Positions 1 through 45,124 of a stretch of DNA of 64,000 bases are shown here, piece by piece (the stretch's first letter is position 1; every line of letters starts with the position of its first letter). Under the pieces are notes generated by a model. It made no database searches. It was not told where the DNA came from and saw only the letters and a program-made list of their open reading frames with translations. The stretch comes from Patescibacteria group bacterium (lineage in GTDB: Bacteria > Patescibacteriota > Dojkabacteria > J137), in contig BOLA01000001.1 of the NCBI GenBank assembly GCA_016861265.1, forward strand, positions 761,352-825,351, read 5' to 3'. The translations under genes were made by a program, and so were the position numbers.

Positions 1-139
1 CTTTTCTAGCATTTTTTCTCATATTAACCATATGAGAGTTGTTTCTATTCTGTAATTTTTTTCTAATTACTTTTCCATTTGCAGTTACTTTAAATCTTTT
101 TGCAGTTCCCTTGTGTGTTTTTAATTTGTACTTTTTCAT
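1..139 (-). CDS. rpmI: 50S ribosomal protein L35, 3'-truncated by window edge (N-term MKKYKLKTHKGTAKRFKVTANGKVIRKK...)
   Basis: Manual reverse-complement translation from ATG at 139..137. KTHKG.AKRFKVT is the L35 signature. Position directly downstream of infC matches the conserved infC-rpmI-rplT order. Confidence 0.75.
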   Translation of the reverse strand, partial: MKKYKLKTHKGTAKRFKVTANGKVIRKKLQNRNNSHMVNMRKNARK

Positions 140-143
140 TGTA

Positions 144-677
144 TTACTTTTGTTTAACTAAAATGCTTAAATTTCTACCTTCTTTCGAAACCTCTGAAAC
201 AGGTTTTGCAAAGTCAGCAATCTGTATTAAAATTTTATCCATAACAGCTTTTAACTGTTCTGGCATAGCTTTTCTCTTCCATTTGACTGTTAATTTAGCA
301 TTTCCGCCCTTAGTTAAGAAATCTTTTGCCTTTTCAAGCTTTATTTGTATGTCTCTGTCGCTAATTGTTGGGCTAAACCACCATTCCTTGTTTTCAATTT
401 GCTTGCTTTGTCCCTTTTTAGCTTTCTTACTTCTTTCGTATTTAAGCTTTGAGTAGTCAACAATTCTAGCAACTGGAGGTTTTGCGTTAGGAGAAACTAA
501 GACTAAGTCTAGCTCAGCTTCCTTGGCTAAATTAAGTGCATCAAATTTTGAAAGAACACCTAGATTAGTACCCTCCGCATCAATTACAACCATGCTTGGG
601 ATTCTAATACCTTCGTTATAATCATAGAAATTAGTTACCTTAACTACTTTCTTAGGATTTCTCTTTTTCTTAATTAT
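144..677 (-). CDS. infC: Translation initiation factor IF-3. The true start is probably a non-AUG codon (AUU at 674..672 or AUA at 677..675). The ORF-track M at 593 is internal.
   Basis: The ORF-track protein aligns to the IF3 N- and C-domains (VLVSPNAKPPVARIVDYSKLKYE). The in-frame extension upstream of M593 reads IIKKKRNPKKVVKVTNFYDYNEGIRIPS, which matches the IF3 N-terminus (NGEIRAxEVRL). There is no in-frame ATG before the stop at 698..696. IF3 classically initiates at AUU. Confidence 0.8.
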   Translation of the reverse strand: MIKKKRNPKKVVKVTNFYDYNEGIRIPSMVVIDAEGTNLGVLSKFDALNLAKEAELDLVLVSPNAKPPVARIVDYSKLKYERSKKAKKGQSKQIENKEWWFSPTISDRDIQIKLEKAKDFLTKGGNAKLTVKWKRKAMPEQLKAVMDKILIQIADFAKPVSEVSKEGRNLSILVKQK

Positions 678-763
678 AGAATTTAATCTAAAAATTTACG
701 TATACCAATAAATCGGCTTGAAAATAATAGCAAATATTTCCGCATTATACAATGGGAATATCG

Positions 764-2287
764 TTATCTTCTTAAAGTTTCGTTAATTTTAACAATAAGG
801 GAATCAAGTCCTATTAGCCCTGTGTCTTTGCCATTTTCCCTTAGGCAAACGGAAGAACTTGCTTCCTCTTTTTGACCTACAATCAGCTGAAATGGAATTT
901 TTAAGGTCTCAGCTTCCTTTATCTTTCTATTCATACTTTTTGCTCTGTTGTTTAAAATTGCGTTAAAACCCTCTGTTCTTAATGTTTCTACAACCTTTTT
1001 GCCGTATTCATAGTACTTTTTGCGAATAGGAATACATACAACGTCTATTGGACTCAAGTAATCCGGCATAATACCCTCGTTGCCTTCTACTAGATATTTC
1101 CATACTTCTGTTAGGTATACATTAAATGATGTTAAAATAACCTGCTTCCTTTCCACCTCGTGAAGCTTTAAATCAGCTAATATCCACTCTTTTTCGTATA
1201 CGTCATTAACTTTTATAAATACATAGGTGTCCTTGGTATTTTTTATTACCTTATTGTGTGAAATTATTTTTCGCTGGAGAAAATTCGAGATTTGCTTAGC
1301 ATAAGAATCTTCAAAGTCAGATGAATAAATATCTGCGGAAAAGTCTATATTAAGAGACTTTAGTGCTTTTAATAGATTCTCGAATTGATCTCCAAATCCT
1401 TGGGTAAAATCTGAAGTCCTGTTTAGGTATCTAAACGATAATAATCCTATCTTTTTAATACTCTTTGAAAAGCTTAGTGAGCTTATGTTCGATTTAAGTA
1501 TGTATTTATGTGGGAAGTCTCTATAACTTGAGTTATCGAATTTTATTATTGAATTAAACGATGAATCGAGTTCTAGTTCGTTGCTATAAGATTTAGTTAG
1601 AGCTATTTCTTTGAATTCTGGTGCATTGAAATTGCTCTCGAAAATCTTTTCAATTTTATTATATATAGCAGTTCCACGCTCAGTTAGGACTACATCGTTT
1701 TCCTTGTCGACAATTCCGTAATGATACTTAAGACTTAGATTTTCGAAATTCTTTTCCTTTAAGTCTTCCTGTAGCTTCTTATATTCCATTAGGTCGTCGA
1801 TTGTTCTAAAGGCTTTGCCGTAGATTCTGACCATTTGTGGTCTTGTAGGGTCGTCGTTCCAGTGTGATTTTTCAATCTTTGTAAGAGTTACTACCCCTAT
1901 TTGATTAGTTGAAGCTACATGAGGTCCCCTGCATAAATCTACAAATTCCTCTCCTGTCTTAAAAAAGCTGATTTCCTGATCCGGAATTCCTCTTATTAGT
2001 TCTGCTTTATAAATTTGCCCTCTTTGTAATAGCAAATTTATTGCCTGGTCCCTTTGTAGGAATACCTGTTGGAATCTGGAATTACTTTGTATTATCTTAT
2101 TCAGTTCTCCCTCTATCTTGGGAAGTTCATCGGAGTCTACGTCCTCTTCTATGTCAAAATCGTAGTAAAATCCTTCTTTTGTAACAGGGCCTACTCCGAT
2201 CTTCACATTTTTATATATTCTGCAAACTGCCATAGCCAATACGTGTGCTGCAGAGTGCTTTTGTGCATCAGATACTTTACTTGTCAT
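764..2287 (-). CDS. thrS: Threonyl-tRNA synthetase, short form lacking the N-terminal TGS region
   Basis: HSAAHVLAMAV editing-domain motif, class II core and C-terminal anticodon-binding region. Conserved position upstream of infC. Confidence 0.9.
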   Translation of the reverse strand: MTSKVSDAQKHSAAHVLAMAVCRIYKNVKIGVGPVTKEGFYYDFDIEEDVDSDELPKIEGELNKIIQSNSRFQQVFLQRDQAINLLLQRGQIYKAELIRGIPDQEISFFKTGEEFVDLCRGPHVASTNQIGVVTLTKIEKSHWNDDPTRPQMVRIYGKAFRTIDDLMEYKKLQEDLKEKNFENLSLKYHYGIVDKENDVVLTERGTAIYNKIEKIFESNFNAPEFKEIALTKSYSNELELDSSFNSIIKFDNSSYRDFPHKYILKSNISSLSFSKSIKKIGLLSFRYLNRTSDFTQGFGDQFENLLKALKSLNIDFSADIYSSDFEDSYAKQISNFLQRKIISHNKVIKNTKDTYVFIKVNDVYEKEWILADLKLHEVERKQVILTSFNVYLTEVWKYLVEGNEGIMPDYLSPIDVVCIPIRKKYYEYGKKVVETLRTEGFNAILNNRAKSMNRKIKEAETLKIPFQLIVGQKEEASSSVCLRENGKDTGLIGLDSLIVKINETLRR

Positions 2288-10071: not shown

Positions 10072-10163
10072 TTAAGTCAAATCTTAAAAATAATTTAACG
10101 ATTATATCAATTATTAAATCTATGACAATTTATAAATAATTTGCTATTATTGCTTGCTTATAA

Positions 10164-10237
10164 GCCTAAGTAGCTCAGTTGGATAGAGCGATAGACTGAA
10201 AATCTATATGTCGGCAGTTCGAACCTGCCCTTAGGCA
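10164..10237 (+). tRNA. tRNA-Phe (anticodon GAA, A37), no encoded CCA
   Basis: Hand-folded. Acceptor gcctaag/cttaggc, D-arm tagctcagttggatagagc, anticodon loop ctGAAaa, T-loop ggcagttcgaacctgcc. Confidence 0.85.
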
Positions 10238-10275
10238 CAACCTCCCTTTCATAATTGAAAGGGAGGAATCCCTTT

Positions 10276-10350
10276 CGGGATGTAGCTCAGCCTGGCAGAG
10301 CGCTGCATTGTAAATGCGGAGGTCACATGGTTCGAATCCTGTCATCCCGA
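10276..10350 (+). tRNA. tRNA-Tyr-like (anticodon GUA) with a short class-I variable loop and a 1-nt bulge in the T-stem
   Basis: Acceptor cgggatg/catcccg is a perfect 7 bp. D-stem gctc/gagc. Anticodon stem ctgca/tgcgg with loop ttGTAaa. T-arm acaTgg ttcgaat cctgt pairs only if T53 is bulged. Confidence 0.55.
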
Positions 10351-10439
10351 CACTAAGTCCACCTTCTTTAGAGAAGGTGGACAATCCCTTTTTATAGACA
10401 GGGATTACGCAATTTGATATCATTACATACTTAACAAAT

Positions 10440-10515
10440 GCTAGGGTAGCTCAGCTGGTAGAGCACTCGCCTGAAGAGCGAGGTGTCGTCGGTTCAAGTC
10501 CGACCCCTGGCACCA
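10440..10515 (+). tRNA. Second, sequence-distinct tRNA-Phe (anticodon GAA) with G37 and encoded CCA
   Basis: Acceptor gctaggg/ccctggc, D-arm tagctcagctggtagagca, anticodon stem ctcgc/gcgag with loop ctGAAga, T-arm gtcgg ttcaagt ccgac. 3' end acca. Confidence 0.7.
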
Positions 10516-10575
10516 TTTTTTCTATTTCCTCACTCACACTTGTTATAATCTGAATATATTTTTGTATATTTACAT

Positions 10576-11001
10576 ATGGATAATTCTGATTTGATTCTAG
10601 CTAAAATTAACGAACTTGCCGCTAAAGTAGAAGCTAATGGAAATGCAGGATTAACGACAAAAGAATTTGAATTTTGGAACTATCAAGGTGCACTTTCAAG
10701 TATAGAAAACGGTGGTATTTACAATCTCATAAATAATATCGGAATGGATTTTACAACCTACGACTATATAAAATATTTAGAAAGATTAGGATTCTCTGAA
10801 ATTGCTAATAAGATATTAATGGTTATTGGGGCAGTCTTTGCAACGAAGATTCCTTCAACGGATACGGATATAAGTATGGAAGATTTATTTGATGAAAAAT
10901 ATGAGGAAGAAATTAATGCACTATCCTCTAAGATTGAAGAATTAATTTATGCAAATTCTCAAGTGATTTGGGAGAAGATGTTGGAGGATTTAAATAACTA
11001 A
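10576..11001 (+). CDS. Hypothetical acidic protein (141 aa)
   Basis: Clean ORF directly after the tRNA cluster. Confidence 0.5.
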   Translation: MDNSDLILAKINELAAKVEANGNAGLTTKEFEFWNYQGALSSIENGGIYNLINNIGMDFTTYDYIKYLERLGFSEIANKILMVIGAVFATKIPSTDTDISMEDLFDEKYEEEINALSSKIEELIYANSQVIWEKMLEDLNN

Positions 11002-11017
11002 TTTATGGGGGTTATTT

Positions 11018-11434
11018 ATGGTTCAACAAATAACGAAGGAAAATATATTTGAACAACTTTACTCTATTGTTCCTGAGTTTAAAGGCGTGATTGATAGCGA
11101 ATACGATGATGAAGAGAAAGAAATTCAATATGTTTTAGCTTACAGACTAGCTCAATATACTTACGAATTATTTGTAACAAAAGATTTTGATCAATTGAAT
11201 AAGATATTAGAATATATCGAGTTGATACTTTCGATAGGTGATACATACGCTCAAGAGTTAGCTACTGTAGGATTCTTAGAGGATATTCAAACAGTTTGGG
11301 ATAATAGCGAAAGAGATCGTAGTGAGATTTATGATCTTCTTTTGCCAGAATCAAAAAAATGGTGGAATCAAGTTGATAAATTTTGGAACGGTAAGATAAA
11401 GTCTATTGGTGAGACTTATGAAGAAGAGTTGTAG
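11018..11434 (+). CDS. Hypothetical acidic protein (138 aa, W-rich C-terminus)
   Basis: Clean ORF 16 nt downstream of the previous gene. Likely co-transcribed. Confidence 0.5.
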   Translation: MVQQITKENIFEQLYSIVPEFKGVIDSEYDDEEKEIQYVLAYRLAQYTYELFVTKDFDQLNKILEYIELILSIGDTYAQELATVGFLEDIQTVWDNSERDRSEIYDLLLPESKKWWNQVDKFWNGKIKSIGETYEEEL

Positions 11435-11558
11435 GGACTCTCTTTATAAACTTATCCAGGTTATTAATACTAAAAGTAAGATTTGATTCATTTATAAAGT
11501 TGGGTTTCTTGGTAAGCAACCACTGCTCACCATTGATAATCCTTTATCTTCAATTATT

Positions 11559-12182
11559 TTAGAGATTAGTCAACCTTTTTAAAACTTCATTTTCACCAGT
11601 TACGCAAATCGACTTTCCTCCAATAGATTCAAAAAGCTCACAATTAGATTTAGAATCATCAATTAGAATACTTTCTTCTAGCTTGCTATCGAAGAGATTA
11701 ACTATATTCTTAAAGATTTTACCCTCGTCTGTCTTCTTTAACTGCCCAGTGTGATAGGATATGAATATTCCATCAAATGTTTTACTTATTTCTGGATTAT
11801 TAGGCAACGTGAATCTTGTAAAAGTGTCCATGTTATCAGTGATCATTACTACCTTATATTTACTTTTTAGTTCTTGAAGTTTTGATAGTATTTTTTCTGA
11901 GACATCAATTGTTTCTGCATCTTTCTTGAATATTTCGAATAAATAATCTTTATCAATATCAAACTTTTCTTTTATTAAATCATGAGCTTCTTCTGCAGTA
12001 TGCAATCCAATCATCCAGTCCTTAACAAAATCCCTATTCTCAACGAATACAAAGGAATTAATATCATTTCGCAAATTGAATAATTTATGATCTTCAGAAT
12101 AAATACTATTCCAAAAGTTTTGATAAGAAATAACTCCATTAAAATCTACAAAAAGGATAGGTTTCATAAACTTATTTAACAA
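11559..12182 (-). CDS. HAD-like hydrolase fold protein with a degenerate motif I (VDFNGV instead of DxDxT/V)
   Basis: ILFVDFNGVIS, VVMITDN and ILIDDSKSN resemble HAD motifs I, II and IV. The first Asp pair is incomplete. Confidence 0.4.
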   Translation of the reverse strand: MLNKFMKPILFVDFNGVISYQNFWNSIYSEDHKLFNLRNDINSFVFVENRDFVKDWMIGLHTAEEAHDLIKEKFDIDKDYLFEIFKKDAETIDVSEKILSKLQELKSKYKVVMITDNMDTFTRFTLPNNPEISKTFDGIFISYHTGQLKKTDEGKIFKNIVNLFDSKLEESILIDDSKSNCELFESIGGKSICVTGENEVLKRLTNL

Positions 12183-12204
12183 TTACTTTTAATAATAACT
12201 GAAA

Positions 12205-12528
12205 TTAGGACTCAATTGTACCAGGTAGTGTGTAAGTACCATCCCTGATTTCATCATGCCTATCCAACAGGTGTTGTGCTTCATCCATGCTTGTAGAAGG
12301 TATGATAATATCTTGAAGATTTTCTCTACTTAATACGCTTCCAGCCTGGGAATCTTTTGTAAATGCAAGTAGTGCTTTTTGAACATCTGTATTAGAAAAG
12401 CCTAGATTATTTAGAAGTAGTCTCATTGTTCCTTCAGGATTCCTCACTAAATCTTCATACTTGACTGCTTCCATATTTATTCCCTGCCTCCTAAGCTGAA
12501 GATACTTATCCATAACTGACAACCACAT
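12205..12528 (-). pseudogene. C-terminal fragment resembling a sulfotransferase (YEDLVRNPEGTMRLLLNNLGF). The N-terminal PAPS-binding part is absent.
   Basis: 107-aa ORF matching only the C-terminal YEDLv.dPe...l..FLG region of Stf-type sulfotransferases. Confidence 0.3.
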
Positions 12529-12620
12529 TAAAGTTATAAATTCGATTGGATTATAACTATTCTATTTCCTTTCACTTAAACTTTTGTAATAATTTAATAT
12601 CAATTTTTTTATTAAACGAT

Positions 12621-12922
12621 ATGACATTTCAAGAATCGATTAAGACATGCTTTAGAAAATACGCAGAATTCGAGGGAAAGGCTTCCCGATCTGAATTATG
12701 GTGGTTTCTTTTATTTGTAACTCTTGTTACAGGAGCATTGGTTATGTAAGTTCTGCAGTAGCTAGTATATTTTTAATTGCGGTATTGCTACCAGTATTGG
12801 CAGTAGGTTCTAGAAGACTTAGAGCCGTTGGAAAAAATAGCTGGTGGTTACTACTCTGGTTAATTCCATTTGCAGGTATAATAATGCTGGCAATCTGGTG
12901 GTCAGAAGAAGACGCGAAATAA
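12621..12922 (+). pseudogene. DUF805 family inner-membrane protein split by a frameshift near 12745-12760
   Basis: Frame 1 reads MTFQESIKTCFRKYAEFEGKASRSELWWFLLF (the DUF805 N-terminus). The next frame continues with VGSRRLRAVGKNSWWLLLWLIPFAGIIM, the RRLHD.G.SGWW hallmark. Confidence 0.6.
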
Positions 12923-12952
12923 ACATACTAAATTAATTTTTAGCGATTAGTT

Positions 12953-13369
12953 ATGGTTAAGCAAGTATTTGTTAATTTACCAGTTTCGGATCTAGTGAAG
13001 TCAACCGCTTTCTATGAAGCCTTGGGTTTTACTAAGAATCCTAATTTCTCCGATGAAAAGGCAAGTAGCCTTATGTGGTCGGATCAAATAATCTTCATGC
13101 TCTTGAGCCACGAATCTTATAACGGTTTTATTCCTGGTAAACAAATTCCGGACTCTACAAAAAATGCACAGGTATTAATTGCACTGTCTTTAGATTCAAA
13201 GGATGCAGTAACAAAATTTGCTGAGACTGCAAAACAAAACGGTGGAGATTTTTATAAAATTGAAACTGGTGTACCAGAAGACTTGATGTTTGGATTAGAA
13301 GTTACAGATCCTGATGGTCATATTTTAGAACCGGTTTGGATGGCCCCCGATTTTAATCCGCAGGCGTAA
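12953..13369 (+). CDS. VOC / glyoxalase-bleomycin-resistance family protein
   Basis: 138 aa, paired beta-alpha-beta-beta-beta modules (FYEALGF, GLEVTDPDGHILE). Confidence 0.75.
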   Translation: MVKQVFVNLPVSDLVKSTAFYEALGFTKNPNFSDEKASSLMWSDQIIFMLLSHESYNGFIPGKQIPDSTKNAQVLIALSLDSKDAVTKFAETAKQNGGDFYKIETGVPEDLMFGLEVTDPDGHILEPVWMAPDFNPQA

Positions 13370-13384
13370 ACTTATTTTAAGTGG

Positions 13385-13939
13385 CTATAATGCCTCTACA
13401 GAATACACAATATTTTCAAAGTAAATTCTATACTCTGAATTATCGTGTGTGCCGTCGTTTAGTGTAAAGTGAAAATAAACAATACTGTCCTCTACTTTTA
13501 TTACATAATCAATGTAGTCATATCCATTTTCAGAATATTCCTCCTTATACGTAACAAAACCATTCACAGTTAAATCTATTTGGTTTCCTTTTTGCGAATG
13601 AAATCTATTTGTATACCATTGCCTTGGATTTAAGTCTGACTGCTCGTTGAATACATTTAGAATATATCGGTCTACAGAGTTGGGTTTAAAGGCGACATTG
13701 CCATCTTGTGTGTCAAGTGAATCCCAATTTTTATACATTTTTATTTGATAACTAAAGTCGTTGTTAATAAAGGAATAAATTTCGGGATCGTTTAGAGGAT
13801 AACTAATTGATCCTTGCTGGAAAGTATTAAAAGCTTGCTCAATCTGTGATCTTAATAAGAACACAACGATTATTAGGACTAGTACAACATTAAAAACGAT
13901 AGAAATTGAGAGTATCAAATTAGATTTGATTTTTAGCAT
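13385..13939 (-). CDS. Hypothetical membrane-anchored protein (184 aa)
   Basis: N-terminal TM helix, then a Tyr/Asn-rich extracellular domain. Confidence 0.5.
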   Translation of the reverse strand: MLKIKSNLILSISIVFNVVLVLIIVVFLLRSQIEQAFNTFQQGSISYPLNDPEIYSFINNDFSYQIKMYKNWDSLDTQDGNVAFKPNSVDRYILNVFNEQSDLNPRQWYTNRFHSQKGNQIDLTVNGFVTYKEEYSENGYDYIDYVIKVEDSIVYFHFTLNDGTHDNSEYRIYFENIVYSVEAL

Positions 13940-14027
13940 AGGTATTTATTAACTATAATTATTGTCCAATTTTTTATTTATGAATACAAGCTTACCTAAT
14001 TTATTAGAACTCTGATAATATTAGTTA

Positions 14028-15392
14028 ATGGAAAAGAAATCCTTACCCGAACCACCAAAAACATTTAGGAACTTAATTGGGCCAGGACTAGTTCTAATTG
14101 CCATGGGGCTAGGCTCCGGCGAGTTTGTACTGTGGCCTTATTTTATATCTCAATTTGGATTTGGAATTATTTGGGGTGCAATATTGGGAATTCTATTTCA
14201 GTATTTTGTAAGTAACGAAACTGGTAGATATACTCTCGCAACAGGGAATAGTGTATTTGTAGGTTTCAAAAAGTTATCCAGATTCTTTCCTGCTTGGTTT
14301 ATAATTTCTACCTTCTTGTCTTTTGCCTGGCCAGGAATAATCGGTACTGGTGGCGAAATTCTTGGTAGATTGTTAAATATTCAAGACTTTAGATGGCTTA
14401 CTATTACCATGTTGATAATTATCGGATTGATTTTCACATTGGGTGGAAAGGTCTACTCTACCCTCGAAAAAACTCAGAAAATATTCTTGCTTATATCTAT
14501 CCCAACATTAATCTTAATAGTTGTTTTAATTGTAAATCCATCAACTTTTATTGATATTGCACAAGGTACAATTGGACTAGGAGATGGTTACTTTCTATTT
14601 CCTGTAGGAATTTCTATTGGGCAATTTCTAGGTGCTATTGCATACTCGGGTGCTGCAGGTAATTTAATACTATCTCATTCTTTTTACATACAAGATAAAG
14701 GTTTTGGCATGGCAGGATATGGAGAAGGTGAACTAGTTATGGGCAAAGAATCCTATTTAAAGGAACTGAAGAATCAGTTCGAATTAAATTCAGAAAATAT
14801 TAAAAAGTTTAAGAGGTGGTTTAATGTTGTAGCTTTGGAGCAATTCATTTCGTTTGTTATTATAGGCTTTTTGTCTATTATTCTTTTAACAATAATCGCA
14901 TATGAATTAATTTACCCTGCAGCCACTGCAGATAATTTAAACTTTATTTTTCTAGAAGCTGAGAAATTATCTTTGATTACACCAATTCTCGGAACTACCC
15001 TTCTGATTCTTGGAGTTGTATTTTTATTTACAACACAATTGGGCGTATTTGAATCTACATCTAGAATTATGTCTGAAAATATACACATGAGCTCAGATTT
15101 TTTTGGGAGAATTTCGAGGAGTAAGTTATTCTTTATTTTTTTATGGGTTCAAATTGTATTTGCAATAATTGTGACTTTACTAAATATTGCGGCTCCACTG
15201 CAGATATTGTTTCTAAATACATTGTTCAGTGCTCTTTCTATGTTCGTATTATCGGGTGCAGTACTATGGCTTAATAATTCTAGGTTTACACCAACGCAAT
15301 TACGACCAAAGTTATTCAGGAATACAATGCTGCTACTAAGTTTTCTATTCTTTGGATTCTTCTGCATAATAGTCATTATTGATAGTTTTTAA
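14028..15392 (+). CDS. Polytopic membrane transporter, Nramp-like
   Basis: About 11 TM segments. N-terminal GPGLVLIAMGLGSGEF resembles the Nramp GPGFL..A..DPGN block. Confidence 0.45.
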   Translation: MEKKSLPEPPKTFRNLIGPGLVLIAMGLGSGEFVLWPYFISQFGFGIIWGAILGILFQYFVSNETGRYTLATGNSVFVGFKKLSRFFPAWFIISTFLSFAWPGIIGTGGEILGRLLNIQDFRWLTITMLIIIGLIFTLGGKVYSTLEKTQKIFLLISIPTLILIVVLIVNPSTFIDIAQGTIGLGDGYFLFPVGISIGQFLGAIAYSGAAGNLILSHSFYIQDKGFGMAGYGEGELVMGKESYLKELKNQFELNSENIKKFKRWFNVVALEQFISFVIIGFLSIILLTIIAYELIYPAATADNLNFIFLEAEKLSLITPILGTTLLILGVVFLFTTQLGVFESTSRIMSENIHMSSDFFGRISRSKLFFIFLWVQIVFAIIVTLLNIAAPLQILFLNTLFSALSMFVLSGAVLWLNNSRFTPTQLRPKLFRNTMLLLSFLFFGFFCIIVIIDSF

Positions 15393-15453
15393 ATTTTAAT
15401 TACATATATCAATTTGTTGTATATAATCAGATATTAATTTTAACGACATATTT

Positions 15454-16122
15454 ATGAAGAAACTACTGATTGTAGGCTGCGTATTATTACTATGCTGCTG
15501 CGTATCATCAATTGCTGGCTTTGCAGCAATAGGTTATTTTGAATCTAATGGAAGCTGTGTTTATAGAGGCCCTTTTGCAACTGTTAGTTCGGGAGCATGT
15601 GTTGCTGCAACAAATGGAACTATGAATTCAACAAATTCCACCAATACAACAAATACAACTAATAGCACAAACCAAGATAGTACAACGGGTTCAACAGATA
15701 AAGTGTATGTAGGTGCTGAGTATTCCCTGACTTATCCACAGGGATTTATTGTGGATGATTCCGACAATAGCATCTTATTTGTGTATGCAGCAAATGAACT
15801 TGATAACTTGAATATTTCTAAAAGAAATTATGCAATAACGGCAACTCAAAATAATTGTGAAGATTACGCCTATAGCACTTTGGATGAACTTGTTGACTAC
15901 GATGCAATTCTAGAAGATGTAAGTGTAGTAACAATTGGAGGCTATAAGGCTTGTAAGGTAGATTTTAGTGCTGACTATGGAACCAGCAGCGGAATTGTAT
16001 ACCAGACCCAATACTACATCGCAGCAGGAGCCAGTACATATTTTGAAACAATAACTATCAATCTAGATGACTCTAACTTCGATGCCTTAGATAACGTTGC
16101 TAGATCCATTCAGTTTAATTAA
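15454..16122 (+). CDS. Secreted or lipo-protein with an Asn/Thr-rich low-complexity linker (NSTNSTNTTNTTNSTN)
   Basis: Signal peptide with Cys cluster (LLLCCCVSS) followed by a globular domain. Confidence 0.5.
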   Translation: MKKLLIVGCVLLLCCCVSSIAGFAAIGYFESNGSCVYRGPFATVSSGACVAATNGTMNSTNSTNTTNTTNSTNQDSTTGSTDKVYVGAEYSLTYPQGFIVDDSDNSILFVYAANELDNLNISKRNYAITATQNNCEDYAYSTLDELVDYDAILEDVSVVTIGGYKACKVDFSADYGTSSGIVYQTQYYIAAGASTYFETITINLDDSNFDALDNVARSIQFN

Positions 16123-16180
16123 AAATATTAACAACCATTGAAAGAATGGTACTGGAATAGTATAATTCCAGTACCTCTTA

Positions 16181-16256
16181 AGGGCAGTTAGCTCAGCTGG
16201 TAGAGCGCTCCGTTTACACCGGAGTGGTCATAGGTTCGAATCCTATACTGCCCACC
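16181..16256 (+). tRNA. tRNA-Val (anticodon UAC), CCA encoded
   Basis: Acceptor gggcagt/actgccc, anticodon stem ctccg/cggag with loop ttTACac, T-loop ggttcgaatcc. Preceded by an 11-bp perfect hairpin at 16147-16174. Confidence 0.85.
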
Positions 16257-16277
16257 ATTTTCCTTACAGTGTTAAAA

Positions 16278-16882: not shown

Positions 16883-18970
16883 CTACTCGATTTGTCCGCC
16901 CTGCCATTCCTCGGCAATTGATCGGGCTAATTTATTGCCCAAATCGAACTGCCTTGTCATAACAGTGTTATCGGCTTGCCCAAATGCAGCAAGAGATAGC
17001 GCAGCTGCAATGGCATGCCCGATAATGAAACTTGTCCCTTGGCTGTCGCCTCGATCAATTGAGTGTGATAGCTCGGGGTAGTCAGAGTTTATCCAAATTT
17101 CCCCCTGCTCCAAGTGATTAAGAGACCAAGCTCCTGCATCCTGACCCGCCGGGCTAAATACCACTGACAACCCCGATTTAAGTTTACGCCGTAAGCGCTT
17201 TTCTTCCCCAGTTATTACATCAAACCGCACCGTGATGTGGTCACGCGGAGCGATAAACGTTAACTGAGGATTCTGTACGCCTAGAGCAAGACTCACTCCT
17301 TGCGGCAGGTCTAGGTATATCCTATACTTCTGCCGATTACTCACTGGGTCAAGGTTTACATGCCCTTTAAAGTTCTTCTCGTGTGCTGTACGACCTTTCT
17401 CGTCAAGTACGCGAACTCTGAACTCTAGGGCACTCAATTCGCCGTGTTCGTTAAGAACAAGCACGCTTATGCCCGGTAGAACTGGTTGTGATTCGTCCTT
17501 CCCTCCCGCTGCTCCACCGCCGGGATTTTCATTTACCTTGGTTACTCCCGGTTTAGGAGGGGTATCCAGAGTAAAGAAATCTCCGAAGCTGTTTAGCGCA
17601 CGGGACATTGCTTGGTTAACGATCTCGTTTATTGCGGCAGTTCGTTGTGCTTTTCTTGACTCCTTTATTTCTCCGACTCTCTGGACTATGTACTCCGTCA
17701 GCTTATTGATTTCTTCAAGCAGTGTAGCAATACCTTTGTTGGCGATGTTGGGACGATCTTTCTTGGGGTCCCAGAAATTCTGGTCTCCAAGCCCGTATCT
17801 TGCAGGTACGAGATCGGCGGGGGTAAATATCTCAATTAACCCCGTTAGCGATGGATGACCCCATACCTCCGGAAAGTACTCCGGTATAGATATTACGGGG
17901 TCTTTTTTTACACCTCGTCTTACAAAACTGGGCGGGAAAGGCTGTCCCTCCTTGCCTACGGTATTTAGGTGAATCACCGCTTGATAGGGATACCCTTGGT
18001 ATTCTGTATCGATTACAATGGGTGAATCCTCAAAAAGCGGATGACCGATGAGTCGTATTGATTCCAATTCCTTTGGCTGGGAATTGAACTTTACAGAAGT
18101 TTTGGTGACCGTCGCATTGTAGAACAGTATGCGAATGTCGCCGTTATAGATCAATCCTCCGTATAGATCACGTAAATGCTCACGAATGTACTGTTCGTTG
18201 ATTCTGGCACTTAAGTCTGTGATTTCAACGATTGTGCCATGTTCCATTGAAACATTAATGTAGGGAATTCTAAAGCCGTTCAAGAATTCCCCCGTGACTT
18301 CAACGATTTCGAAGCCTCGATTCCGTACTTCCGGGTTGGGACTGAATCTAGGTGCCTTTAGCTGGTATATGGGAACTTGGTTCTGTTTTTGTACATTGCC
18401 ACCGTAGCCAGCAGAGGCCAGTCCTATAAAAGCCCGGGATGTGTAGTGACACTGCCCAAGGCTCCATGCTTCAGTCATTCCAATTCCAAAAGTACCCTGT
18501 GGCCGATCAGCCGTTCGTTTCCGCATTGACCACAGGCTTTGAACCGGCTGCTGTGCTCTCGCCCAAAAATCTGGACGCGATTTAGCACTCAGCGCCCCGG
18601 AGCTAAGCATGTACAGAAACGATATTGCGTAAACCGGATTAAGCTGGCTGAACATTGCTTCAATTGCTGCCCTCGCAATATCTTCATCGAGCGAGTTTGC
18701 ATGTTCAATGTACTCAGCAATAATCCGAGCCTGATCTTCTGGAACGCGTCCCAGAATCCCATGCCCATTATCTGCTACTACAATCCTCCTTCCTTCTGTT
18801 CCTTCGACCAGTACAATGTGAATTGTATCTGCTCCCGCATCAACGGCGTTGCCGACCAACTCAGAAAGAGTGCTGCTTACTTGGCCTTGACCAAGGCTTG
18901 CAACACGGTTCAAAAGATTATCGGTGTTAGCGTTGAATGTTCCAGTTACAACCTTTGATGATTGCTTCAT
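16883..18970 (-). CDS. GHKL / Bergerat-fold ATPase (MORC/MutL-like N-terminal domain) with an uncharacterised C-terminal region of about 500 aa
   Basis: Motif I ELVGNAVDAGA (ExxxNxxDA), motif II DNGHGI (DxGxG), motif III/G2 GTFGIGMTEAW. 695 aa. Start ATG overlaps the upstream stop (TAATG). Confidence 0.7.
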   Translation of the reverse strand: MKQSSKVVTGTFNANTDNLLNRVASLGQGQVSSTLSELVGNAVDAGADTIHIVLVEGTEGRRIVVADNGHGILGRVPEDQARIIAEYIEHANSLDEDIARAAIEAMFSQLNPVYAISFLYMLSSGALSAKSRPDFWARAQQPVQSLWSMRKRTADRPQGTFGIGMTEAWSLGQCHYTSRAFIGLASAGYGGNVQKQNQVPIYQLKAPRFSPNPEVRNRGFEIVEVTGEFLNGFRIPYINVSMEHGTIVEITDLSARINEQYIREHLRDLYGGLIYNGDIRILFYNATVTKTSVKFNSQPKELESIRLIGHPLFEDSPIVIDTEYQGYPYQAVIHLNTVGKEGQPFPPSFVRRGVKKDPVISIPEYFPEVWGHPSLTGLIEIFTPADLVPARYGLGDQNFWDPKKDRPNIANKGIATLLEEINKLTEYIVQRVGEIKESRKAQRTAAINEIVNQAMSRALNSFGDFFTLDTPPKPGVTKVNENPGGGAAGGKDESQPVLPGISVLVLNEHGELSALEFRVRVLDEKGRTAHEKNFKGHVNLDPVSNRQKYRIYLDLPQGVSLALGVQNPQLTFIAPRDHITVRFDVITGEEKRLRRKLKSGLSVVFSPAGQDAGAWSLNHLEQGEIWINSDYPELSHSIDRGDSQGTSFIIGHAIAAALSLAAFGQADNTVMTRQFDLGNKLARSIAEEWQGGQIE

Positions 18971-19572
18971 TATCTGCCCTCTCGCATTTCGTATAGCCGT
19001 CCCCGGTTAAGATGGACAATTCGAGCTAGTTCCCTCTCTCTTTCACCGGCGTCTAACGATAATGCCGTTAAGAAAGGTACGACGAAACTGAGTAGCTCGC
19101 CGTTTGCCTTTACAAACTTATCCCGACTTGCTCGTTCATCCTGAATCAGCTCTATTATTAAGCTGACCACTCCCATAAGGGTATAATCGTGTTCGGTATT
19201 GGCTTGTAAAGTTGAATACGGCGGCTTCTGAATGGAAGCCCAATTGAGGTAATCATCAAGTTCGATTGCCCGCTTGATCTCTGTGACTTCACCACCAAAT
19301 CTGATGTGAAGCCTTGGTGGAAGCTGGGTTGGATTCGCTTGAGCAAGACCTAGGTGGTAGAAGAGCTTAGCATAGAGCCAGCTATCCTGCGCAATTCGAT
19401 CATACTTAACCAAGTTCATCCATTCCTGAATTCCAATTCCAGCATAAAATATGAATTCAACTTCGTTGAATTCACCCGACTGAACTAAACTCAGAAAAGC
19501 AGGGCGGAAATGTTCTCTCCACGCTTGCTCTACTTTTGCATAGTTCTCCCTTCGTTCATCAATTTCACTCAA
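18970..19572 (-). CDS. Hypothetical 200-aa protein, first gene of the island operon. TTG start with AAGGAG RBS 6 nt upstream.
   Basis: The ORF-track M is actually TTG in the sequence. A strong Shine-Dalgarno is present. Translationally coupled to the GHKL ATPase gene. Confidence 0.55.
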   Translation of the reverse strand: MSEIDERRENYAKVEQAWREHFRPAFLSLVQSGEFNEVEFIFYAGIGIQEWMNLVKYDRIAQDSWLYAKLFYHLGLAQANPTQLPPRLHIRFGGEVTEIKRAIELDDYLNWASIQKPPYSTLQANTEHDYTLMGVVSLIIELIQDERASRDKFVKANGELLSFVVPFLTALSLDAGERERELARIVHLNRGRLYEMREGR

Positions 19573-23308: not shown

Positions 23309-25300
23309 TTAAATTAAACTTGCTTTAATTCTTCTTACACCCGAACCACTGCTCTCTTCTTTTACAATCTTAAATGTCTTCCCGCCTTCGGATAATTCAC
23401 TTGTATTGTTCACATGTGGACCACCACAGAACTCAATTGAGAATATCCTATCTTTTATATTCATTACCTCTTCTAAACTCGGTTTCAAATTTAAATCTTT
23501 TAAGTCATTTCCCATTACATAGACTGAGACAATATCGGGATATTTAGCACCAAATTCCATTTGTGCTCCTGTCTGCTCTGCATCTTCTCTCTTCATTTCT
23601 AGTCTAAGTACATCAAGGTTTTCGTTAATCTTTTTGTTTACAAGTTCCTCAACTTGAGTTTTTTCTTGTTCAGTTAAAGATCTGTTCAAATTAAAATCAA
23701 TTCTTAATCTTTCTGCTGTAATATTGCTTCCCTTTTGTTTAATTGTCGGGTCAACAATTTTTTGTAATGCAGCTAAAAGTAAGTGGTGGGCAGTATGTAG
23801 CTTTGTTGTTTCTACACTTGCATCTGCTAATCCACCTTTGAATTTTTGTTCTGCACCTGCTCTACTTGCCGCTCTGTGTGCCTCTTCCTCTTTTTTAAAG
23901 TCAGCAGTTATCTTTTCTGCGTCGTCTTCGTTAATCTTTAATTCATCTAAAGTAAGTTCTAAAGGAAAGCCGTATGTCTCATAAAGATAAAAAGCTTCCT
24001 TCCCGTCAATTACTAAGTTTTCGGTTCGCAAGTCTTTATCTTGAACTAACTTTTGTAAATGTCTTAAGCCCTTATCCAGTGTTTGTTTAAATATTTTTTC
24101 TTCCTTTGTGATTTTTTGTAGAATATCGTCTCTATTTTCTGCTAAATGCGGATATGCATAACTCATGTTTTCTATCACTACTTGAGCAATATTTGCGGTA
24201 AAGTCCTGCTCTATTCCTAATTTTTTACCAAATCTAACAAGTCTTCGAATAAATCTTCTTAGAATATAACCTTGGTCTTTATTCGAAGGACTAACGCCAT
24301 CCGCTAGAATAAATGTTGCTGCCCTAGCATGATCTGCAATTACTCTAAAACTTGCAGTAAATTCGTTATCCTTACCATTTGTTTTGTATTCCTTGCCACT
24401 TAAACCTTGAATTTGTTCAATTATTGGCATGTATATATCGGTTTCGAAAATGTCATTCTTATCTTGAACTAGCATTACAACTCTTTCGAATCCTCCACCA
24501 AAGTCAATGTTCTTTTGTTCCAGTGGTTGCCATTTTAAATTCTCATCCAGCTTATACTGCATAAACACATTGTTTCCAATTTCTATAAATCTTCCTGAAT
24601 CATCATTAACATGGTATTTATCCTGAACTACATCAATAACTCCTCGATCGTAAAACATTTCGCTGGTCGGTCCACCTAGTTCTCCCTTTGCGTGAGCCCT
24701 TTCCCACCAGTTTTTCTTTTTTGGGTATTTAAATATTCTATATTTATGGGTCTTACCTGCTTCTAAATCTGCTGGAATATCTGTGATATCTGGTGCTAGC
24801 TGTGCATCGATACCATATTTCTTAAATGCTTTCTGCCATATTTCCACAGCCTCCATATCCATTGGAGCATCATCATCCCCTTCGAATACTGTAACGTAGA
24901 TTCTGTGAGGATCTAGTCCACAAACTTCGACCCAGAATTCCAGTATCCATGGAATCTGTTCTTCTTTAAAGAAATCGCCTAAAGACCAATCGCCCATCAT
25001 TTCAAACATTAGTGTATGCCTGTTATCTCCAATTTCAATCATTTCGTCATAATTTGTTCTTAGGCATCTTTGAAAATCGACTAATCTTTTACCCAGTGGA
25101 TGAGGTTGACCGCCTAGGTATGGTGCTAATGGAAACATTCCTGAATTTACGAATAGTAAAGTGGAATCCACATTAGGAACCAAAGACATATTTGGCACAA
25201 TCTTCATGTTTCGTGGACTTTCAGTCCAGTACTTAAAAAAATCTTCTCGTATTTGTCTTGATGACTTCATATTTGCTTTATAACTTGTTAAAAACGACAA
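23309..25300 (-). CDS. alaS: Alanyl-tRNA synthetase, short form (663 aa: catalytic, tRNA-recognition and editing core)
   Basis: Class II AlaRS N-terminus, then editing-site HxxxH...CxxxH (TAHHLLLAAL ... CGGPHV). Confidence 0.9.
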   Translation of the reverse strand: MSFLTSYKANMKSSRQIREDFFKYWTESPRNMKIVPNMSLVPNVDSTLLFVNSGMFPLAPYLGGQPHPLGKRLVDFQRCLRTNYDEMIEIGDNRHTLMFEMMGDWSLGDFFKEEQIPWILEFWVEVCGLDPHRIYVTVFEGDDDAPMDMEAVEIWQKAFKKYGIDAQLAPDITDIPADLEAGKTHKYRIFKYPKKKNWWERAHAKGELGGPTSEMFYDRGVIDVVQDKYHVNDDSGRFIEIGNNVFMQYKLDENLKWQPLEQKNIDFGGGFERVVMLVQDKNDIFETDIYMPIIEQIQGLSGKEYKTNGKDNEFTASFRVIADHARAATFILADGVSPSNKDQGYILRRFIRRLVRFGKKLGIEQDFTANIAQVVIENMSYAYPHLAENRDDILQKITKEEKIFKQTLDKGLRHLQKLVQDKDLRTENLVIDGKEAFYLYETYGFPLELTLDELKINEDDAEKITADFKKEEEAHRAASRAGAEQKFKGGLADASVETTKLHTAHHLLLAALQKIVDPTIKQKGSNITAERLRIDFNLNRSLTEQEKTQVEELVNKKINENLDVLRLEMKREDAEQTGAQMEFGAKYPDIVSVYVMGNDLKDLNLKPSLEEVMNIKDRIFSIEFCGGPHVNNTSELSEGGKTFKIVKEESSGSGVRRIKASLI

Positions 25301-25595
25301 AAGCCGTCCTTAACACTAAATAAATTAATGCTAAGGACGGCTTTAAGCTCGTGGTACCACCTTAATTCCCCTATTGCTAGGGCTTATTACTTTTATACGG
25401 TTTAATCCGGGATAACTCTTCGCTATCCAGCTCCTGGGCTGCAGGGATTTTTATTTGAGTAATTTTCACCGTCCATTACCTCTCTGTACAAACTTAAATC
25501 TTTCTTCCCATTCAACGCTTTTTAATTGTTAAGCAATTATATAAAAAAGAACTAAGACTGTCCATAAGTAAAACAGTTGGTTTTTTATATAGCAA
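25301..25595 (-). promoter_or_regulatory. T-box riboswitch leader of alaS
   Basis: Minus-strand T-box sequence AAUUAAGGUGGUACCACG (plus 25350-25372 cgtggtaccaccttaatt). Terminator hairpin aagccgtccttagc...taaggacggctt plus TTGTCGTTTTT lies directly before the alaS ATG. Stem-I AGAGAG element (gtacagagagg) upstream. Confidence 0.75.
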
Positions 25596-43312: not shown

Positions 43313-45124
43313 ATGAATTTCAAAACTTTTGCACAATTTCTTTCTGAGCTAGAAAATATTAGTAGTCGTACACAAATGACTATTACTACTGCAGATTTTA
43401 TAAAGCAGCTTGATTCAACTAGTGTAAAGCCGGCAATGTATTTACTGCAAGGCAGACTAGCACCCAAGTATATTCCGTTGGAATTCAACTTTTCACTAAA
43501 ATTAATAATTAAATCACTATCTCAAGCTATAGCAGAAGAAACCATTCTTAATCTATACAAGTCCAAAGGTGATGTAGGCTTAATGGTAGAAGAATTATTA
43601 TCTAACTGGGAAAAATATACCGATCACTCTAATAAACTTGGTATTAATAATTATGAATACAAACCCAAGGAAAAAAATATCTCGATTGTGTTCGAAGAAC
43701 TTAATACTATAGCTACCGCTAGTGGAGCTGGTTCTCAAGAAAAGAAGATGTCTGCGTACCTAAGCTTAGTTTTATCTGTTGATCCGATGAGTGCAAAGTA
43801 TATATCTAGAATTATTGTGGGTGCCTTAAGGATTGGGATGAGTGAAAAAACATTGTTAGATGCTATGTCCTGGGCAATAACTGGAGATAAATCCTTAAGA
43901 AAAGATTTGGACATTGCATTTGGCTATAGAGCTGATATTGGTGAGCTGGCTAAAATACTAGTAGATAACAAATTTAACGATTTAGAAGATAAGCTTGAAC
44001 ACATAAAACTTAATCCTGGAACACCGGTGGCATCTAAATTAGTTGAAAGAGAATCCTCGCCTGAAGCGGTCTGGGCTAGAATGCCGGAATGCTTTGTACA
44101 GCCTAAACTAGATGGATTAAGAGGACAAATTCACTTCGATAGAGCTAAAAATATTGTAGAAATTTATAGCCGAAATATGGAAAACATGACTGCTCAATAT
44201 CCTGAAATTGTGCATTCTGTAAAGGAACTAGATGTAGACTCAATAATTCTAGATTCAGAAATAATAGGATTTAACGAAGAGACAATGGCCTATAGCAGAT
44301 TTCAGGACACAATGAAGCGTAAAAGAAAATTTGATATTGAAGAATTCTCTCAATCGATTCCAGTAAAAGCTATGTGTTTTGATTGTTTGTATTTAAACGG
44401 ACAGGATTTAACTTCCATGACATTAGAGGAACGAATTCAAAATCTAAAAAATGCTCTAGCTAAGCCAACAAAAGGTTTAGCAATATTAGAAACCACTCAA
44501 ATGCATTCAGAAGAAGAACTAGCTAAATATTTTAGAGAAAAAGTAGAAGCAGGACTTGAAGGAATCATCACAAAGCAATTAGGTACTAACTATGAACCTG
44601 GTACAAGAAACTTTAAATGGATAAAGCTTAAGGCTAATACGCGAAGCGACTTAGTAGATACAATAGACGTGGCTATTATTGGCTACTACATTGGTAGAGG
44701 TGATAGATCACGATTTGGATTTGGTGCATTACTTGCTGCAGCTTATAACCCGAAAGACGATAAATACTATAGTCTTGGAAAGGTTGGTAGTGGATTTACT
44801 GAGGAACAGATGGAGCAAATGTTTAAGGATATGTCCGAAATTAAATTGAAAGAACAGCCAGAGAATTTTGTGGTGAACTCTACCCTATACCCAGATGTTT
44901 GGATAGAGCCTAAGATTGTTGCAGAAATTGTTGCCGATGAAATTACGCGAAGTCCAAACCATACTGCTGCAATTAATTTAGAAGCAAATGTACCGGGAGA
45001 TGATTCCACTAAAGGGTTATCAATTAGATTTCCAAGAATGAAGAAATGGAAAAGAGATAAGGATTATCCAAACACGGTAGAAGAAATTGTACGAATGTAC
45101 GAATTAAGAAAACGGGTGTCTTAA
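43313..45124 (+). CDS. ATP-dependent DNA ligase (Lig1/archaeal-type, DBD-adenylation-OB architecture)
   Basis: Motif I VQPKLDGLRGQIH (KxDG), motifs III-V and an OB domain. 603 aa. Confidence 0.85.
   Translation: MNFKTFAQFLSELENISSRTQMTITTADFIKQLDSTSVKPAMYLLQGRLAPKYIPLEFNFSLKLIIKSLSQAIAEETILNLYKSKGDVGLMVEELLSNWEKYTDHSNKLGINNYEYKPKEKNISIVFEELNTIATASGAGSQEKKMSAYLSLVLSVDPMSAKYISRIIVGALRIGMSEKTLLDAMSWAITGDKSLRKDLDIAFGYRADIGELAKILVDNKFNDLEDKLEHIKLNPGTPVASKLVERESSPEAVWARMPECFVQPKLDGLRGQIHFDRAKNIVEIYSRNMENMTAQYPEIVHSVKELDVDSIILDSEIIGFNEETMAYSRFQDTMKRKRKFDIEEFSQSIPVKAMCFDCLYLNGQDLTSMTLEERIQNLKNALAKPTKGLAILETTQMHSEEELAKYFREKVEAGLEGIITKQLGTNYEPGTRNFKWIKLKANTRSDLVDTIDVAIIGYYIGRGDRSRFGFGALLAAAYNPKDDKYYSLGKVGSGFTEEQMEQMFKDMSEIKLKEQPENFVVNSTLYPDVWIEPKIVAEIVADEITRSPNHTAAINLEANVPGDDSTKGLSIRFPRMKKWKRDKDYPNTVEEIVRMYELRKRVS

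Follow-up and report, generated by a model that had tools for sequence, protein, structure and literature searches.

A 64,000-nucleotide stretch of a Patescibacteria group bacterium genome (contig BOLA01000001.1 of assembly GCA_016861265.1, positions 761,352 to 825,351; hereafter the window) contains a cluster of three tRNA genes on the forward strand, in which two accessory tRNA genes precede a housekeeping tRNA-Phe. The MurA protein of the window is 84% identical to Candidatus Dojkabacteria proteins, with closer relatives up to 94%, and these matches assign the window to a Dojkabacteria genome (WS6, Patescibacteria or candidate phyla radiation, CPR). The G+C content of the window is 33-35%. 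The cluster is surrounded by chromosomal housekeeping genes, including murA and murB at a distance of 1.6 kb, mutL, clpP, a ThrRS-like gene and a T-box-controlled AlaRS gene. Labels such as L001 denote the loci compared with the window, namely the murA neighbourhoods of relatives, taken at a MurA identity of 74-93%, and metagenome contigs, which were added by the presence of the 5' half of tRNA-Phe.

Anatomy of the tRNA cluster

The tRNA genes were called with ARAGORN and with the Rfam tRNA model (Infernal, threshold 29 bits). Both methods agree with the original prediction of three tRNAs with the anticodons GAA, GUA and GAA, which score 63-72 bits. The first gene (tRNA1, accessory family A; 10164-10237, ARAGORN end 10238; 71.6 bits) carries the Phe anticodon GAA in the loop CUGAAAA, with A37. 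Its acceptor stem is GCCUAAG/CUUAGGC with G1-C72, and A73 is followed by CAA, so that no CCA is encoded. The second gene (tRNA2, accessory family B; 10276-10350, ARAGORN end 10351; 63.1 bits) carries the Tyr anticodon GUA in the loop UUGUAAA, together with the acceptor stem CGGGAUG/CAUCCCG with C1-G72, A73 and no encoded CCA. The third gene (tRNA3, the housekeeping tRNA-Phe; 10440-10515, Rfam end 10512; 67.8 bits) has the anticodon GAA in the loop CUGAAGA, with G37, the acceptor stem GCUAGGG/CCCUGGC with U3-G70, and A73 followed by an encoded CCA. The anticodon loops of tRNA1 and tRNA3 differ at position 37 alone and their stems differ throughout, which bears out the earlier description of two tRNA-Phe genes distinct in the D, T and acceptor arms, the second with G37 and CCA and the first without CCA. 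Genes lacking CCA are normal in the window, as tRNA-Val(GAC) at 2306-2379 is without it and tRNA-Val(UAC) at 16182-16257 has it.

tRNA2 has a class-I shape. Its variable loop is composed of five nucleotides (AGGUC), and the Infernal alignment places one inserted U in the T-stem ('<<<.<<'). Since this one-base insertion lies inside the T-stem, the manual fold behind the original prediction was not mis-registered, and both the 5-nt variable loop and the bulged T-stem stand. The possibility that tRNA2 is a misfolded class-II tRNA was rejected, because Infernal aligns all 71 model positions with the 5-nt variable loop. In addition, tRNA2 shows neither of the two traits of class-II bacterial tRNA-Tyr that were tested, the long variable arm and G1-C72. 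The universal tertiary positions are complete in both tRNA1 and tRNA2 (U8, A14, G18, G19, U33, T54-C56, A58 and G53-C61). Two other, independent Logan metagenome assemblies (L001 and L002) are identical to the window over the whole cluster, including the T-stem bulge of tRNA2, and an assembly artefact was rejected on these grounds.

The accessory genes are embedded in promoter-like sites, hairpins and a short repeated motif, all read on the forward strand. A promoter-like site matched by the consensus scan (P1, ATGACA-17-TATTAT with TG; 10122-10150) is located about 13 nt upstream of tRNA1, and L018 and L030 retain the P1 region upstream of their accessory tRNAs. Hairpin 1 (CCTCCCTTTCA/TGAAAGGGAGG; 10241-10266), with a perfect stem of up to 11 bp, begins 3 nt past tRNA1 and occurs in L018 with an identical stem and a different loop. 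The first motif AATCCCTT (10267-10274) marks the module boundary, and ATCCCTTTCGGGAT overlaps the 5' end of tRNA2, as had been seen before. The terminator-like hairpin 2 (GTCCACCTTCT/AGAAGGTGGAC; 10357-10382; 11 bp) closes the accessory unit. It is the sole terminator-like site in the consensus scan, and L018 and L030 retain it with a single compensatory exchange of A-T for T-A. The second AATCCCTT motif and hairpin 3 (AATCCCT/AGGGATT, a 7-bp stem), identified from the sequence and the promoter scan, occupy 10383-10406. The loop of hairpin 3 harbors the -35 element of a second promoter-like consensus match (P2, TAGACA-17-TATCAT with TG; 10395-10423), which is assigned to tRNA-Phe. A -10-like TATAAT/TATTAT box is present at an equal distance upstream of tRNA-Phe in all related loci, including those free of accessory tRNAs.

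The 8-mer AATCCCTT occurs twice in the window, both times directly 3' of a hairpin in the cluster, and its positions are the same in L018, L020 and L030. Both modules share one layout, in which the accessory tRNA is followed by a gap of 2-6 nt, an 11-bp GC-rich hairpin and then the 8-mer. The order of the unit is P1, then tRNA-A with hairpin 1 and AATCCCTT, then tRNA-B with hairpin 2 and AATCCCTT, and finally the native P2 and tRNA-Phe. L030 lacks the first module, so that its P1 abuts tRNA-B. The whole window contains about 12 distinct perfect hairpins (stem of at least 8 bp with at least 4 G/C), two to three of them in the 350-bp cluster, and the hairpin scan gave 32 entries in the window versus 2.15 in shuffles. 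All three spacer hairpins reported earlier were recovered, with stems of up to 11, 11 and 7 bp. Most module hairpins have a pyrimidine-rich 5' arm that resembles an anti-Shine-Dalgarno sequence and a GGAGG-like 3' arm. At 10241-10282, three mutually exclusive pairings share the strands GAAAGGGAGG, TCCCTTTC and GGGAT, namely hairpin 1, an alternative 8-bp hairpin at 10257-10276, and an ATCCC/GGGAT pairing that uses the 5' acceptor strand of tRNA2.

The tRNA-Phe locus in related lineages

A 76-nt tRNA-Phe with the loop CUGAAGA, identical or nearly identical to tRNA3, is present in L008, L010, L015, L018, L020, L023, L028 and L031. The differences between tRNA3 and these eight copies are limited to two compensatory T-stem pairs, which are the only changes in the L018 copy (95% identity), and to the encoded CCA, which is missing from the otherwise identical gene of L031 (3783-3856, reverse strand). 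The tRNA-Phe of L012 has diverged by five compensatory pairs and retains G37. Together with this copy, tRNA-Phe with G37 occupies the syntenic position in nine related loci, and all sampled tRNA-Phe genes of Dojkabacteria have G37. A37, which is the i6A/ms2i6A site typical of most bacteria, is not present in tRNA3. Judged by these sequence comparisons, tRNA3 is the conserved native housekeeping tRNA-Phe and its G37 is a trait of the lineage. The original prediction had viewed G37 as an archaeal/eukaryal-type oddity; because the same loop is shared by the tRNA-Phe of all related loci, it represents the lineage norm and not an archaeal or eukaryal intrusion. A comparable case is found in the Mollicutes, whose tRNA-Phe contains m1G37 in place of ms2i6A37. 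In both cases a bacterial tRNA-Phe(GAA) with G37 belongs to a reduced-genome, AT-rich lineage, although the Mollicutes are of another phylum.

A disrupted pseudo-tRNA-Phe was also observed at this locus in L020 (~700-880, reverse strand) and L028 (~80-300, reverse strand), as well as in L025. In it, the initial 19 nt of tRNA-Phe are followed by a conserved D-loop insert of ~90 nt and then by TAGAGCA(C/T). The pseudo-tRNA-Phe retains the native promoter, with the intact tRNA-Phe located ~45 nt downstream, and resembles a scar left at the locus by an insertion or a duplication.

The genes upstream of tRNA-Phe vary among the lineages. The window has GAA and GUA at this place, and L018/L019 (MurA identity 89%) have GAU and UUA (ochre) in exactly the same layout, the GAU gene being the orthologue of tRNA1. 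L030 (89%) contains the second module alone, with the anticodon GAA on a family-B body. A different tRNA(GAU) is found in L020 (93%), and a relative of this tRNA with the anticodon GAA in L015/16/17 (92%). L008 (90%) has an odd GAU tRNA with C37, and L025/26/28 (89%) have a CUA (amber) tRNA with a 9-nt anticodon loop and a GAU tRNA with C33 and G73. No accessory tRNA is present upstream of tRNA-Phe in L010/L022, L012, L023 and L031. The accessory tRNAs of relatives all score 53-66 bits against the threshold of 29 bits, and the anticodons of accessory tRNAs are without exception A/U-rich at positions 35-36. Independent sequencing runs support both stop-anticodon arrays, two runs for the UUA array and three for the CUA array. 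The 9-nt loop of the CUA tRNA in L028 (418-492, reverse strand) could alternatively be drawn as a 6-bp anticodon stem closed by U-G; this tRNA and its GAU neighbour in L025, L026 and L028 have features unusual for elongator tRNAs.

Family A is missing from L010, L012, L023, L030 and L031, and tRNA1 does not show the syntenic conservation of a housekeeping tRNA-Phe. Since the distribution of the modules does not track MurA similarity, the modules appear to have been gained, lost or exchanged. Anticodons for stop codons do not occur in the window genes, which read Phe and Tyr, and are confined to other lineages (UUA in L018/L019, CUA in L025/26/28). The original prediction had proposed that at least one gene of the cluster is foreign, suppressor-type or decoding-altering. 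For the two upstream genes, this proposal of non-canonical, possibly suppressor-type tRNAs is supported by their positional orthologues, which carry GAU, UUA, GAA and CUA, and for the G37 tRNA-Phe it does not hold. A scan of 185,579 species-representative genomes of GTDB for the tRNA2 D-arm with a GUA/A37 loop found no homologue. The three matches obtained are unrelated, two being archaeal and one from Auribacterota, and the two that were inspected are an intron-containing tRNA-Tyr of Woesearchaeota (L006) and the interrupted Auribacterota gene. In JGI metagenomes, the hairpin-1 pattern gave no match, and a tRNA-Phe 48-mer retrieved four contigs, none with a new array.

Several comparisons point to structural constraint on the accessory tRNAs. 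Between the window and L018, MurA is 77.5% identical at the nucleotide level, its third codon positions are saturated at 47% identity, and the ordinary intergenic spacer between murB and mutL is 58.7% identical, where shuffled sequence gives ~50%. Over the same divergence, the module spacers are 80%, tRNA-A 81%, tRNA-B 72% and tRNA-Phe 95% identical. The family-B tRNA, with an anticodon arm that is different in every lineage, is less conserved than the flanks of the module. Family A has three compensatory pairs and none broken between the window and L018, and family B has six double changes, one single change and none broken. The family-B orthologues with UUA (L018/L019) and GAA (L030) have five to six compensatory pairs each. 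Moreover, RNAalifold recovered the cloverleaf from ten accessory tRNAs, and 16 of the 21 stem pairs show a double change with pairing kept in at least one sequence. The compensatory nature of the stem changes, together with the intact universal tertiary nucleotides of tRNA1 and tRNA2, argues against free decay, and the compensatory evolution of the stems weakens the earlier suggestion that a pseudogene may be among the three genes.

Identity of the GUA tRNA, mobile elements and neighbouring genes

The body of tRNA2 resembles tRNA-Pro. Its best phage-database matches are annotated tRNA-Pro with ~83% identity, and for both tRNA2 and its UUA orthologue in L018 the best annotated matches are tRNA-Pro with 80-83% identity over the full length. 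Bacterial tRNA-Pro has an acceptor end of C1-G72 with A73. The NGG anticodon of tRNA-Pro, with G35 and G36 as the main ProRS determinants, is not found in this family, which has GUA in tRNA2 itself and UUA or GAA in its orthologues. By established identity rules ProRS should not accept a non-NGG anticodon, and tRNA2 should therefore be rejected by ProRS. tRNA2 does match the archaeal/eukaryal Tyr identity set, consisting of C1-G72, A73 and GUA, with no long arm. Archaeal/eukaryal-type TyrRS and C1-G72 tRNA-Tyr, with or without the long arm, occur in CPR including Dojkabacteria/WS6 (Mukai, Reynolds, Crnkovic and Soll 2017, Life 7:8; PMC5370408), and one Roizmanbacteria genome has a C1-G72 tRNA-Tyr version without the long arm (PMC5370408). 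tRNA2 shares C1-G72, A73 and GUA with these tRNAs and also comes from a Dojkabacteria (WS6) genome. However, the published cases are the organism's Tyr system with an archaeal/eukaryal-type TyrRS (PMC5370408), whereas tRNA2 is strain-specific and has a tRNA-Pro-like body, a bulged T-stem and orthologues with UUA or GAA. If the genome contains an archaeal/eukaryal-type TyrRS, tRNA2 can be tyrosylated, and its orthologue with UUA would insert Tyr as an ochre suppressor; with a bacterial-type TyrRS instead, tRNA2 is probably not charged. A 'tRNA-Tyr' call on such a Pro-like class-I body deserves an isotype/anticodon mismatch flag.

The open reading frames (ORFs) neighbouring the cluster, from 764 to 30671, were scanned with Pfam, PHROGs, NCBIfam and PADLOC. 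No phage, plasmid, integrase or transposase genes were found among them, and they encode housekeeping or unknown proteins only. The 2.9 million viral contigs of IMG/VR were scanned with four patterns, namely the tRNA2 D-arm with GUA, the tRNA1 D-arm with GAA, hairpin 1 with AATCCC, and a generic family-B 5' half with an NWA anticodon. These scans returned nothing relevant, the sole matches being two giant-virus metagenome-assembled genome contigs for the tRNA2 D-arm with GUA. The phage-database matches reflect generic tRNA similarity (78-83%). A phage origin was rejected in view of the IMG/VR scans and of the empty PHROGs and PADLOC results for neighbouring proteins. The earlier view of the cluster as a phage or integration site thus finds no phage or integrase signature either in the neighbouring ORFs or in IMG/VR. 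The modules are cassette-like in comparison with integrons, each ending in a hairpin and the fixed 8-mer; no integrase was found within ~20 kb of the modules, and we take AATCCCTT to be unlike attC core sites.

Like the accessory tRNAs and arrays of phages, plasmids and integrative elements, the genes upstream of tRNA-Phe are extra, divergent and CCA-less and duplicate host decoding, their presence varies between close relatives, and they stand beside a variable island. They differ from such arrays in that no phage, plasmid or integrase genes were found near the modules and the four IMG/VR scans returned no relatives. In addition, each locus here has one or two tRNAs, arranged as tRNA and hairpin modules ending in a fixed 8-mer and always placed at one chromosomal site. 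Two adjacent proteins of 197 aa and 252 aa, without a family match even at E<=1, were considered as partners of the modules and dropped, because they are missing from the module-bearing L018 and L020 loci.

The region between tRNA-Phe and tRNA-Val(UAC), 10516-16181, is a polymorphic island with no integrase, and its gene content is different in every related lineage. In the window it includes a DMP19-like protein, DUF7674, a HAD hydrolase, a glyoxalase and an Nramp transporter. L001, a contig of the same population, departs from the window at ~10527, right past the 3' end of tRNA-Phe. Farther downstream, two ORFs on the reverse strand at 16883-19572 have a G+C content of ~44% against a background of 33%. 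One encodes a 695-aa protein with a GHKL/MutL-like ATPase N-terminus and the other a 200-aa protein without a match. They are located between the NT5C and SNase genes, which adjoin each other in L008, and this pair is probably a foreign insertion and perhaps related to defence. A T-box leader (25330-25524, reverse strand; 97.6 bits) precedes the AlaRS gene (23309-25300), an arrangement shared by L010 and L022. At 43313-45124 on the forward strand, a 603-aa ATP-dependent DNA ligase is composed of N, adenylation and C domains (DNA_ligase_A_N/M/C), a domain architecture which we take to be of the archaeal/eukaryal type.

Interpretation of the accessory tRNAs

We read the cluster as two transcription units located side by side. 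Unit 2 (P2 and 10440-10515) would be the ordinary, vertically inherited tRNA-Phe of the lineage, with G37 presumably present as m1G37 made by TrmD. Unit 1 (10122-10390) would be composed of a predicted promoter, tRNA(GAA, A37), a hairpin, tRNA(GUA) and a terminator hairpin, its modules ending in AATCCCTT. Modules of this kind would be gained, lost and exchanged among related lineages at the single site upstream of tRNA-Phe. Their tRNAs would evolve fast while keeping the cloverleaf and the universal tertiary nucleotides, and their anticodons would move among GAA, GAU, GUA, UUA and CUA. For expression and use, we infer the following route. Both tRNA1 and tRNA2 would be transcribed from P1 and excised by RNase P and RNase Z, and their CCA would be supplied by the CCA-adding enzyme, which must be encoded in the genome because the tRNA-Val(GAC) gene lacks CCA. 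Charging would follow identity, so that tRNA1 would be served by PheRS, which relies mainly on the anticodon. tRNA2 would receive Tyr only from an archaeal/eukaryal-type TyrRS, which recognises C1-G72 and A73 without needing the long arm and is reported for some Dojkabacteria. On the ribosome, the two tRNAs may act as additional decoders of the abundant UUY and UAY codons (TTT+TTC 54 per thousand, TAT+TAC 39 per thousand). We put the probability at roughly 0.55 that 10122-10390 is a dispensable accessory tRNA operon, the products of which are extra Phe and, conditionally, Tyr decoders.

Several points weigh against this accessory-operon reading. No TyrRS gene was found among the scanned ORFs, which covered the larger ones window-wide and nearly all of those near the cluster. 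The positional orthologues differ in anticodon, which is unexpected for a simple gene-dosage supplement. TAA terminates 17 of 19 sampled L018 genes and 40 of 51 window genes, and UUA or CUA orthologues in such TAA-terminating genomes, if active, would do more than supplement decoding. Recent lateral transfer, instead of purifying selection, could account for the high conservation of the module, which is seen in a small sample. In addition, some copies may be decaying, because the T-stem of tRNA2 is bulged, L030-B has two T-stem mismatches and L015-C has one acceptor mismatch. A broader reading is tentative, with the odds against it. Here the Dojkabacteria would have a chromosomal slot upstream of tRNA-Phe, in which a conserved scaffold (promoter, GC hairpins and AATCCCTT) carries exchangeable, diversifying tRNA cassettes with anticodons toggled among Phe, Ile, Tyr, ochre and amber. 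The cassettes would then form a selected system that alters or protects decoding and not passive copies. Examples of its use may be conditional stop read-through, deliberate mistranslation through the Pro-like or Tyr-like body, and evasion of tRNA-targeting weapons.

The last of these uses has been considered as an explanation by itself, in which the accessory tRNAs serve as reserves or as decoys when tRNA is the target of toxins such as anticodon nucleases, secreted tRNases and the weapons of phages or competitors. With their variant loops (A37 in place of G37, other bases at positions 32 and 38, and shifted anticodons), they would keep translation going or absorb the toxin. Such an arms race would explain the turnover of the modules and the fast change of the anticodon arm. 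It fits the strain-variable content of one site, the family-B anticodon arm that changes faster than the conserved flanking scaffold, and the loop of tRNA1, which departs from that of the housekeeping tRNA-Phe at position 37 only with stems different throughout. It also fits the adjoining strain-variable island with its DMP19-like and DUF7674 proteins. The escape of phage tRNAs from anticodon nucleases by loop changes is an established precedent. We nevertheless regard this explanation as unlikely, since the known cases are phage-encoded and not chromosomal, the stop-reading anticodons UUA and CUA are left unexplained, and no linked nuclease, toxin or defence gene was found, PADLOC, PHROGs and NCBIfam being empty for the neighbours. 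The upstream genes could instead be relics that earlier integrations or duplications left at a hot spot of recombination. They would be drifting under AT mutation pressure, unused or barely used, and their N-(A/U)-(A/U) anticodons would have arisen by decay, for instance from the NGG of a former tRNA-Pro. The irregular copies are consistent with such drift, including the bulge in tRNA2, the mismatches in L030-B and L015-C, the odd L008 loop with C37, and the two L028 tRNAs, one with C33 and the other with a 9-nt loop. The same holds for the lineages without modules, the tRNA-Pro-like body of family B that has no Pro anticodon, the disrupted pseudo-tRNA-Phe at the same locus in L020 and L028, and the A/U-rich positions 35-36 of every anticodon. 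Decay is made improbable by the comparison with saturated neutral sites (third positions 47%, intergenic 59%), beside which the modules are 72-87% identical. The double compensatory changes in 16 of 21 stem pairs, the intact universal tertiary positions and the conserved promoter-like and terminator-like elements likewise speak against it.

Two further explanations assign a more specific role to tRNA2 or to the accessory genes as a group. C1-G72, A73, GUA and the missing long arm, together with the Dojkabacteria/WS6 precedent (PMC5370408), would suit tRNA2 as the main, essential archaeal-identity tRNA-Tyr of the organism, paired with an archaeal/eukaryal-type TyrRS. We consider this very unlikely, since tRNA2 is not a conserved tRNA-Tyr of the lineage: in all sampled sister lineages it is absent at the locus or replaced by UUA or GAA versions, and its D-arm with the GUA/A37 loop was not found among the GTDB representatives apart from the three unrelated matches. 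A bulged T-stem and anticodon swaps are also unexpected for an essential single-copy tRNA. As for the group, the accessory tRNAs might supply amino acids outside the ribosome, for example to the synthesis of the cell wall or of peptides, where T-stem irregularities would weaken EF-Tu binding. In the staphylococcal non-proteinogenic tRNA-Gly species, T-stem irregularities lower EF-Tu binding. Such a role would accord with the proximity of murA-murB and the T-stem anomalies of tRNA2 and L030-B, and stop anticodons would be harmless in tRNAs kept off the ribosome. It is highly improbable, however, because no Fem/MurM-, MprF-, CDPS- or L/F-transferase-like gene was found nearby, the adjacent 197-aa and 252-aa proteins have the distribution described above, and the constant neighbour of the modules is tRNA-Phe and not mur.

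Elements of the accessory operon have individual precedents, which comprise CPR archaeal-type Tyr identity, accessory or mobile tRNA genes, anticodon-shifted tRNAs and natural suppressors. Saks et al. reportedly described in 1998 a tRNA gene that was recruited to a new codon through a point mutation in its anticodon, and anticodon shifts also exist in eukaryotes and mitochondria. As in these remoulded or alloacceptor-switched genes, the positional orthologues here combine an otherwise homologous body with a point change in the anticodon, which is GAA or GAU in family A and GUA, UUA or GAA in family B. The present case differs in that the shifts recur in one small dispensable locus among close lineages, include stop-reading anticodons, and have flanks more conserved than the tRNA itself. 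The UUA of the tRNA2 orthologue in L018/L019 and the CUA in L025/26/28 resemble natural nonsense suppressors (tyrT-derived ochre or amber suppressors and those of recoded phages), and the change from GUA to UUA is the classical Tyr-tRNA route to an ochre suppressor. However, the window copy has a sense (Tyr) anticodon, no phage context was found, and the host genomes are mainly TAA-terminated with no sign of recoding. The combination of a fixed chromosomal slot, a conserved promoter and hairpin scaffold, and exchangeable tRNAs with Phe, Ile, Tyr, ochre and amber anticodons was not found in the literature searched.

In most genomes, few features are as frozen as the identity and anticodon of a tRNA. 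At this locus, well-folded tRNAs switch anticodon between sister lineages, even to stop-reading ones, within a scaffold that is conserved better than the tRNAs. Our comparison also corrects a likely annotation trap, as G37 in tRNA-Phe is normal for the phylum. If the accessory tRNAs are active, CPR bacteria would make use of flexible decoding or at least tolerate it, and natural class-I C1-G72 tRNAs with GUA and UUA anticodons would exist, which are of interest for how the genetic code has evolved and as orthogonal tRNA scaffolds.

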